23,513 nt of DNA, taken from the IMG/VR virus record IMGVR_UViG_2737471866_000003; one strand, given 5' to 3'. The notes beneath the pieces are model-generated. The model was not told the origin of the DNA, ran no database searches, and saw only the letters and a list, made by a program, of their open reading frames with translations. A program made the translations under genes and the position numbers. Numbering within the stretch: position 1 is the stretch's first letter; the number at the start of each line of letters is the position of its first letter. Origin of the DNA: a virus (taxonomy: Duplodnaviria; Heunggongvirae; Uroviricota; Caudoviricetes). This document shows, piece after piece, positions 22,106 through 22,131 of the stretch.

Positions 22106-22131
22106 TACTGTAATATCAATCTATTACAGTA
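22106..22131. promoter_or_regulatory. 10 bp perfect inverted repeat TACTGTAATA-N6-TATTACAGTA in the cosB-equivalent region upstream of the small terminase gene
   Basis: Seen directly in the sequence; the region is AT-rich. A candidate small-terminase or other dimeric protein binding site. Confidence 0.35.

Follow-up and report, generated by a model that had tools for sequence, protein, structure and literature searches.

An inverted repeat in the cos region of a lambdoid prophage with a DUF1441 small terminase is probably the IHF site of a lambda-type cosB

Terminase genes and cos elements around the inverted repeat

The stretch of DNA analysed here (the window, 23,513 nucleotides, IMG/VR record IMGVR_UViG_2737471866_000003) carries a lambdoid prophage with its structural genes on the minus strand, which we assign from its sequence to the mEp460/phi458/Gifsy type. 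The initial annotation had drawn attention to a perfect 10-bp inverted repeat at 22106-22131 and had taken the adjacent gene for a small terminase with a helix-turn-helix (HTH). The gene does encode a small terminase (TerS) and, as in lambda, a TerS homologous to gpNu1 is accompanied by a gpA-type large terminase (TerL) (Table 1). TerS retrieves the lambda-Nu1 family phrog_57 (E = 8e-10) and, reciprocally, Nu1 retrieves phrog_141 (E = 5.6e-8); hhalign places TerS and Nu1 in collinear register over the HTH and wing (E = 2e-4, probability 46%). By these comparisons TerS is a homologue of gpNu1 with a predicted N-terminal winged HTH. A PDB sequence search with TerS, and another with its family profile, gave no informative match. 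In the DUF1441 literature we found incidental mentions only, and no experimental work on the Gifsy/DUF1441 branch.

Across cos, the minus strand reads TACGGGTCCTTCCGGTGGGGTGGTCTGCCACG, GGGCGGCAGCGG and CGCGGAAAAAGG in succession and aligns with lambda cosQ (GGGTCCT), the lambda right end (..TTACG) and the lambda left end (GGGCGGCGACCTCGCGG). The cohesive end GGGCGGCAGCGG deduced from this alignment differs from lambda bp 1-12 (GGGCGGCGACCT) at positions 8, 9, 11 and 12. The record of phage cdtI ends at the place corresponding to window position 22188, and that of mEp460_4F5 starts about 4 nt from there. On the basis of the alignment, cosQ and cosN are homologous to those of lambda, with a predicted 12-nt 5′ cohesive end, and the heptamer GGGTCCT would act as the packaging termination signal, as cosQ does in lambda.

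We numbered the cos region by taking window position 22187 as cos bp 1. The TerS ATG (22001) is then cos bp 187 and the inverted repeat covers cos bp 57-82, inside the left cohesive end, with the TerS gene about 105 bp downstream. It thus lies, as described at the outset, between cosN and the terminase gene. In lambda, R3 spans cos 50-65 and I1 about 65-90, and the ATG of Nu1 is at 191 (PMC9026076; PMC4856287). Since the repeat and the ATG match these positions, the proposed placement of the repeat where lambda has cosB is correct. In phage orientation (minus strand) the elements follow one another as cosQ, cosN with GGGCGGCAGCGG, an AT-rich spacer, the predicted R3 (TCATCACCAC), I1, R2 and R1, and the TerS ATG.

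Table 1. Terminase genes and observed or predicted elements of the cos region (window coordinates)
Feature	Position	Strand	Basis or remark
Large terminase, gpA-type ATPase and endonuclease	19405-21507	-	PF05876, PF20454
Small terminase (TerS), 164 aa, DUF1441, N-terminal HTH LNISQLAALSGVHRQTAAARL	21507-22001	-	Pfam PF07278 E = 2.7e-41; phrog_141 E = 7e-74
R1-like predicted TerS site TCATCACTAA, R3 orientation, cos bp 121-130	22058-22067	-	2 mismatches to R3
R2-like predicted TerS site TCGACACCAC, inverted relative to R3, cos bp 94-103	22085-22094	+	2 mismatches to R3
A-tract AAAAATAAAAA, separated by 8 nt from the IHF core on its 5′ side; on the sense strand, the T-run that follows the hairpin	22095-22105	+	sequence read
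Inverted-repeat arm adjoining the A-tract, TACTGTAATA (+ strand letters)	22106-22115		sequence read
IHF core consensus match TATCAATCTATTA (consensus WATCAANNNNTTR), I1-equivalent, cos bp 62-74	22114-22126	+	0 mismatches
Inverted-repeat arm adjoining R3, TATTACAGTA (+ strand letters)	22122-22131		sequence read
R3-like predicted TerS site TCATCACCAC, cos bp 47-56	22132-22141	-	best direct/inverted/direct 10-mer triple at lambda-like positions
Predicted 12-nt cohesive end GGGCGGCAGCGG in cosN, flanked by CCACG and CGCGG	22176-22187	-	alignment with lambda bp 1-12
cosQ-like heptamer GGGTCCT	22210-22216	-	same letters as lambda; 29 nt before the predicted nick vs 30 nt in lambda

Several features of the surroundings were recorded besides. 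The window has a mosaic joint at cos (22188), where the cosQ side resembles phi458 (89%) and phage cdtI (about 80%); the TerS and cosB of cdtI belong to another subtype, only 42% identical. About 470 bp past cosN, where relatives carry lysis-module genes, lies an IS3-family element (about 22654-23513) whose transposase ORF of 271 aa occupies 22683-23498 on the minus strand (NF033516, E = 2.5e-96). An ORF of 90 aa (22145-22417, plus strand) spans cosN and matches phrog_35283 over its first 28 residues only; it is probably a spurious gene call that recurs over cos in related phage records.

The inverted repeat reads TACTGTAATA-TCAATC-TATTACAGTA: its arms are 100% complementary, as first reported, and enclose a spacer of 6 nt. 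With arms of 10 bp or more and loops of no more than 6 nt, first-order Markov shuffles of the window predict 0.16 perfect inverted repeats; for the 650-nt AT-rich non-coding stretch, modelled with arms of 10 bp or more and loops of up to 10 nt, the expectation is 0.0075. An origin by chance alone is therefore unlikely, though not wildly so. The window has only two inverted repeats of this size. Its longest, a perfect 16-bp repeat (TTATAGAAGTCCTTCA-ctgta-TGAAGGACTTCTATAA, 22542-22578), lies about 75 nt from the IS3 end, and at the equivalent place relatives carry another, G+C-rich hairpin. The 8+8 core of the palindrome, ACTGTAAT-N8-ATTACAGT, has a single copy in the window (0.04 expected) and a single one in the entire phi458 genome. 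Half-site matches with two mismatches are in excess (21 vs 7.8 expected), with no further match at zero or one mismatch among them. A direct repeat made of arm plus R3 (22124-22140 vs 22245-22261, 14 of 17 positions) was rejected: it is not kept in cdtI, phi458 or strain cS51a, and was therefore taken as chance.

IHF core, A-tract and R-like repeats

Searched on both strands, the window matches the IHF consensus WATCAANNNNTTR perfectly in one place only, at TATCAATCTATTA within the palindrome. Such a match taken by itself is not rare, as at least one occurs somewhere in 39% of shuffled windows, and the argument for IHF therefore depends on position and conservation. The TACTGTAATA arm fills the 8-nt gap between the A-tract and the WATCAA element; in the TATTACAGTA arm, the inner ATTA includes the TTR element, and the outer CAGTA varies among relatives. 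The same succession of an A-tract, about 8 nt and then WATCAA-N4-TTR is found in lambda attP H′. Unlike the site studied here, H′ serves recombination and not packaging, and it lacks palindromic flanks. Strong IHF sites such as H′ combine a core with an A-tract in the other half-site (bioRxiv 10.1101/382655). Core and A-tract together thus have the sequence make-up of an IHF site, and IHF is predicted to bind here.

On either side of the predicted IHF site we found 10-mers related to each other in the manner of the lambda R repeats: three similar sequences, with R2 inverted and R3 about 50 bp from the predicted nick. A triple as good as this one was obtained in 1.5% of shuffles for the window (p ~0.015), which taken alone is moderately significant, and in at most 0.5% for many relatives. 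The TCGACA(C/T)CA(C/T) motif is also present in relatives and in Gifsy-2. At the R positions relatives carry TCATCATCAT, TCGACATCAT and TCACCATCAT, the R1 place being occupied by TCACCATCAT or TCATCATCAT. With these repeats, each sequence element of a lambda-type R3-I1-R2-R1 cosB has a predicted counterpart in the window.

The type of R repeat co-varies with residue 13 of TerS, which stands at the start of the HTH (codon at about 21963-21965 in the window). Ser13 (LN[IV]SQ) is paired with CACCAC in the window clade, as it is in most of a group of five loci, L008-L012, the exception being L011, whose R3 is GTCAGCACTG. About 40 loci combine Asn13 (LNINQ) with CATCAT; one of them is L007, with a TerS 86% identical to that of the window. 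Residue 13 is thus a candidate determinant of packaging specificity, and the flanking R repeats, rather than the palindrome, are probably the sites contacted by TerS.

Variation of the palindrome at constant TerS and across genera

The palindrome had initially been read as, most plausibly, the binding site of the small terminase. In that case a dimeric TerS would recognize it with one HTH per arm, and this would set cosB specificity. Its position in cosB, abutting the R3-like repeat, the HTH of TerS and the homology of TerS to gpNu1, which is dimeric, are in keeping with such a site, as is its single occurrence in the whole phi458 genome. One check proposed for this reading was whether the repeat co-varies with the TerS gene in related prophages. 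We compared 89 homologous cos copies with an identical or at least 99% identical TerS: the window, 80 IMG/VR contigs, 3 genome contigs and phages phi458, mEp460, mEp460_4F5, Ayreon and vB_EcoS-569R4. Prophages and viral contigs, which may not be viable, make up most of this set.

In 86 of the 89 copies the IHF core has no mismatch, and in the other 3 it has one. Across 48 haplotypes the A-tract AAAAATAAAAA and R3 TCATCACCAC are nearly invariant, and in R2 the GTGTCGA portion is invariant. Columns C17, T18 and C36 of alignment A1 are likewise invariant, though they fall outside the IHF consensus. For cosB as a whole, variation peaks at the two middle Ns of the IHF consensus, right beside an invariant ATTGAT. 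Conservation in the spacer is thus asymmetric, which fits IHF and is unexpected for a symmetric dimer site.

The arms behave differently from copy to copy. Counting Watson-Crick pairs, all 10 arm positions are complementary in 16 copies, 9 in 16, 8 in 32, 7 in 23, 6 in one and 4 in one; perfect 10-bp arms are therefore a minority haplotype, although at least 7 positions pair in 87 of the 89 E. coli copies. At a TerS identity of at least 99%, the arms range from 12 perfect bp to no palindrome. The latter is found in L005, a contig labelled as a MAG, where TerS is identical over 164/164 residues, only 4 of 10 positions are complementary, and the core TATCAATTAGTTG and the flanking repeats are retained. 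In phage vB_EcoS-569R4, one arm carries TATTATAATA, with CTG replaced by TTA in the TACTGTAATA arm. Conservation in cosB is among the lowest at the outer positions of the arms. Pairing might seem to be kept, given a small number of symmetric double changes (T..A to C..G) and the extension to 12 bp. However, 92.7% of arm cells are paired vs 92.0% in shuffles, with only two double changes, and support for compensatory evolution of the arms is weak. From this near-equality and from the variation of the arms at constant TerS, we conclude that the dyad is inherited and loosely kept, without strong selection.

One joint change was recorded apart from these counts. In 6 of 48 identical-TerS haplotypes, columns 16 and 53 of alignment A1 jointly pass from A-T to G-C, in inverted-repeat register, and this was matched in 0 of 500 shuffles. 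Column 16 (window 22130) is the second base in the arm on the R3 side, and column 53 (window 22093) lies immediately outside R2. No co-variation was seen in the outer helix CACCAC/GTGGTG. The double change could result from linkage, from template-switch repair of a quasi-palindrome or from selection; if the last were true, pairing would be under selection across the whole R3-I1-R2 module.

We also compared 66 loci from other species, among which the overall cos layout recurs. In Enterobacterales (about 30 loci), the interval from cosN to the TerS gene has its best IHF-like match at an offset of 66-70 from cosN on the same strand, with no mismatch in 12 loci (3 of them the E. coli-type L004-L006) and one mismatch in 15. 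The position of the core is thus kept across genera, the predicted IHF site standing between R3 and R2. In Enterobacterales loci of other genera, the N positions of the consensus and the flanks differ from those of the window, and the TACTGTAAT palindrome was not found. It is also absent from the nearest diverged TerS clades, L007 (86% identity) and L008-L012 (about 70%). In Pasteurellaceae, cosB is shorter and has no IHF core.

These data go against the palindrome as a site for dimeric TerS. With TerS nearly constant the arms vary from 4 to 10 complementary positions; the co-variation that was looked for does exist, but it falls on the flanking R repeats and not on the arms. Neither the absence of the palindrome in L005 next to an identical TerS nor the asymmetric conservation of the spacer is expected for such a site. 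In addition, a distance of 16 bp between the centres of the arms corresponds to about 1.5 helical turns, which from geometry would put them on opposite faces of straight DNA. The palindrome itself is probably not a TerS site, and we consider recognition of its two arms by a TerS dimer unlikely.

A match to IHF accounts for the core and not for the symmetry around it: since IHF sites are non-palindromic, IHF alone leaves unexplained the persistence of the 8-bp arms (ACTGTAAT/ATTACAGT) in most E. coli copies. The arms could act in the late transcript, which is read from the minus strand, as an RNA hairpin followed by UUUUUAUUUUU. Placed upstream of the terminase gene, the hairpin would then serve as a weak intrinsic terminator or an insulator that Q-modified polymerase reads through. 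For the sense strand the folding energy is -9.8 kcal/mol in the window and -16.1 in phi458/L004. The latter haplotype, with a 12-bp stem, 4 GC pairs and a T-run, is accepted by a terminator scan; the window haplotype, with its 10-bp stem and 2 GC pairs, is not called by the same scan. Among copies whose TerS is the same or nearly so, folding energies spread from -16.1 to -0.7 kcal/mol, 569R4 reaching -1.2 and L005 -0.7, and the antisense strand folds too (-13.9). At five polymorphic arm sites an A-to-G change retains a G.U pair in the sense RNA, and at two others pairing is lost, but this asymmetry is not significant. The near invariance of the T-run is equally explained by its being the IHF A-tract. 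No Rfam match above noise was obtained in 21900-22700, and the hairpin is missing in other genera. Altogether, a role of the palindrome as a terminator or insulator hairpin appears improbable.

The palindrome might also be the operator of another dimeric protein, a host or phage regulator such as a LexA-like protein, competing with IHF to gate packaging or late expression. Its improbability by chance in the non-coding stretch (0.0075) and the resemblance of its half-sites to the TACTGT of SOS boxes, noted from the start, would fit an operator; the outer letters TACTGT/ACAGTA are common to the window and to the LexA box (TACTG(TA)5CAGTA). The E. coli LexA consensus is CTGT-N8-ACAG (CTG-N10-CAG). 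In the window, CTGT and ACAG are separated by N14 (CTG and CAG by N16), a spacing that is incompatible with E. coli LexA and rules out a standard SOS box, in agreement with the initial annotation. Of the known regulator motifs compared by eye, TyrR (TGTAAA-N6-TTTACA), CRP and FNR (TTGAT-N4-ATCAA), none fits in its spacing. Neither the window nor the whole phi458 genome has another copy of the dyad, which argues against an operator set, and the arms are degenerate or missing in many cos copies. We regard such an operator as very improbable.

Comparison with known cos sites and predicted role of the palindrome

Taken together, position and conservation favour another reading: the palindrome is probably I1, the binding and bending site of host IHF, in a lambda-type cosB of the mEp460/phi458/Gifsy-type prophage. 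As in lambda I1, the core lies between R3-like and inverted R2-like repeats (cos 62-74 vs about 65-90 in lambda), its consensus is on the strand opposite to the terminase coding strand, and an A/T-tract neighbours it on the R2 side; relative to R3 and R2, the consensus match of lambda I1 is on the same strand. Unlike lambda I1, which has one or two mismatches, the core of the window is a perfect consensus, and it lies within a palindrome of 8-12 bp. The R repeats also differ, those of lambda being of the CGTTTCC type and those of the window 10-mers of CAC or CAT triplets, and R1 lies nearer to R2 (cos 121) than in lambda (about 151).

Gifsy-2 offers another comparison; its TerS (47.5% identical) is of the same family. 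Gifsy-type cos shows similar differences from lambda in the cohesive end and a similar repeat motif, TC(A/G)NCAC. The repeats of Gifsy-2 are TCAGCACTG, TCGACACTG and TCGACACTG, with an R3-R2 spacer of 36 nt vs 37 nt in the window. Unlike the window, Gifsy-2 lacks the TACTGTAAT palindrome, and by eye its best IHF-like match, AATCAATACATTT, has one mismatch and is on the other strand.

Cos sites with an R3-I1-R2-R1 cosB including an IHF site are described for phi80, 21 and Gifsy-1 (PMC9026076 sec. 1.3; PMC4669245). Bending by IHF lets the TerS dimer dock on R3 and R2 (PMC9026076 sec. 1.3; PMC4669245; PMC4856287). By analogy, IHF, TerS binding and bending would combine in the window as follows. 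IHF would bind the asymmetric core together with the A-tract and bend the DNA sharply, as in lambda. The bend would set R3 facing R2, allowing the two winged-HTH domains of a TerS dimer to dock, and the docked TerS would position TerL for nicking cosN. The two-fold symmetry of the arms would be a feature of the E. coli mEp460 lineage, loosely maintained and not needed by TerS, and in some haplotypes it may supply a weak hairpin or terminator in the late transcript. No new mechanism is revealed: the arrangement is ordinary, as described for lambda, 21, phi80 and Gifsy-1.

The predicted IHF site may have an added, selected function in the E. coli mEp460 lineage, either as a DNA or RNA hairpin that juxtaposes R3 and R2 or by insulating the head operon in lysogens; we give this only a small chance. 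One form of it would be IHF-independent bending by the hairpin, or cruciform extrusion in supercoiled concatemers. If true, a hairpin or insulator function would make I1 a dual-use element.

A matching region is present in 1010 of 5426 complete genomes, and the assignment proposed here would map cos for a type of prophage that is very common in E. coli. It would also attribute cosQ, cosN, R3, I1, R2 and R1 to small terminases of the DUF1441 family, so far annotated only as a domain of unknown function. Such a map could help in calling prophage ends, in predicting packaging-specificity classes (Ser13/CACCAC vs Asn13/CATCAT) and in designing cosmid or transduction tools.

Two further observations were made in other cos regions. 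In the record of phage Ayreon (locus L150, MF807953.1, 44400-44580), cosN and cosB are separated by about 170 nt that include a fragment of the TerS gene and are annotated within a ‘late gene regulator’; the extra stretch looks like an assembly or terminal-repeat artefact. Finally, in 22 of 59 loci of other Enterobacterales that have a DUF1441 TerS, vs 0.8% of background windows, a Fur-box-like palindrome (for example AAATGATAATCATTATC, with 2-5 mismatches to GATAATGATAATCATTATC) precedes the cosQ-like heptamer at a fixed distance, 2-9 nt upstream. Its carriers include L009, L010, L022, L023 and L028-L037, and it is absent from the window, where the equivalent place is at about 22219-22260.
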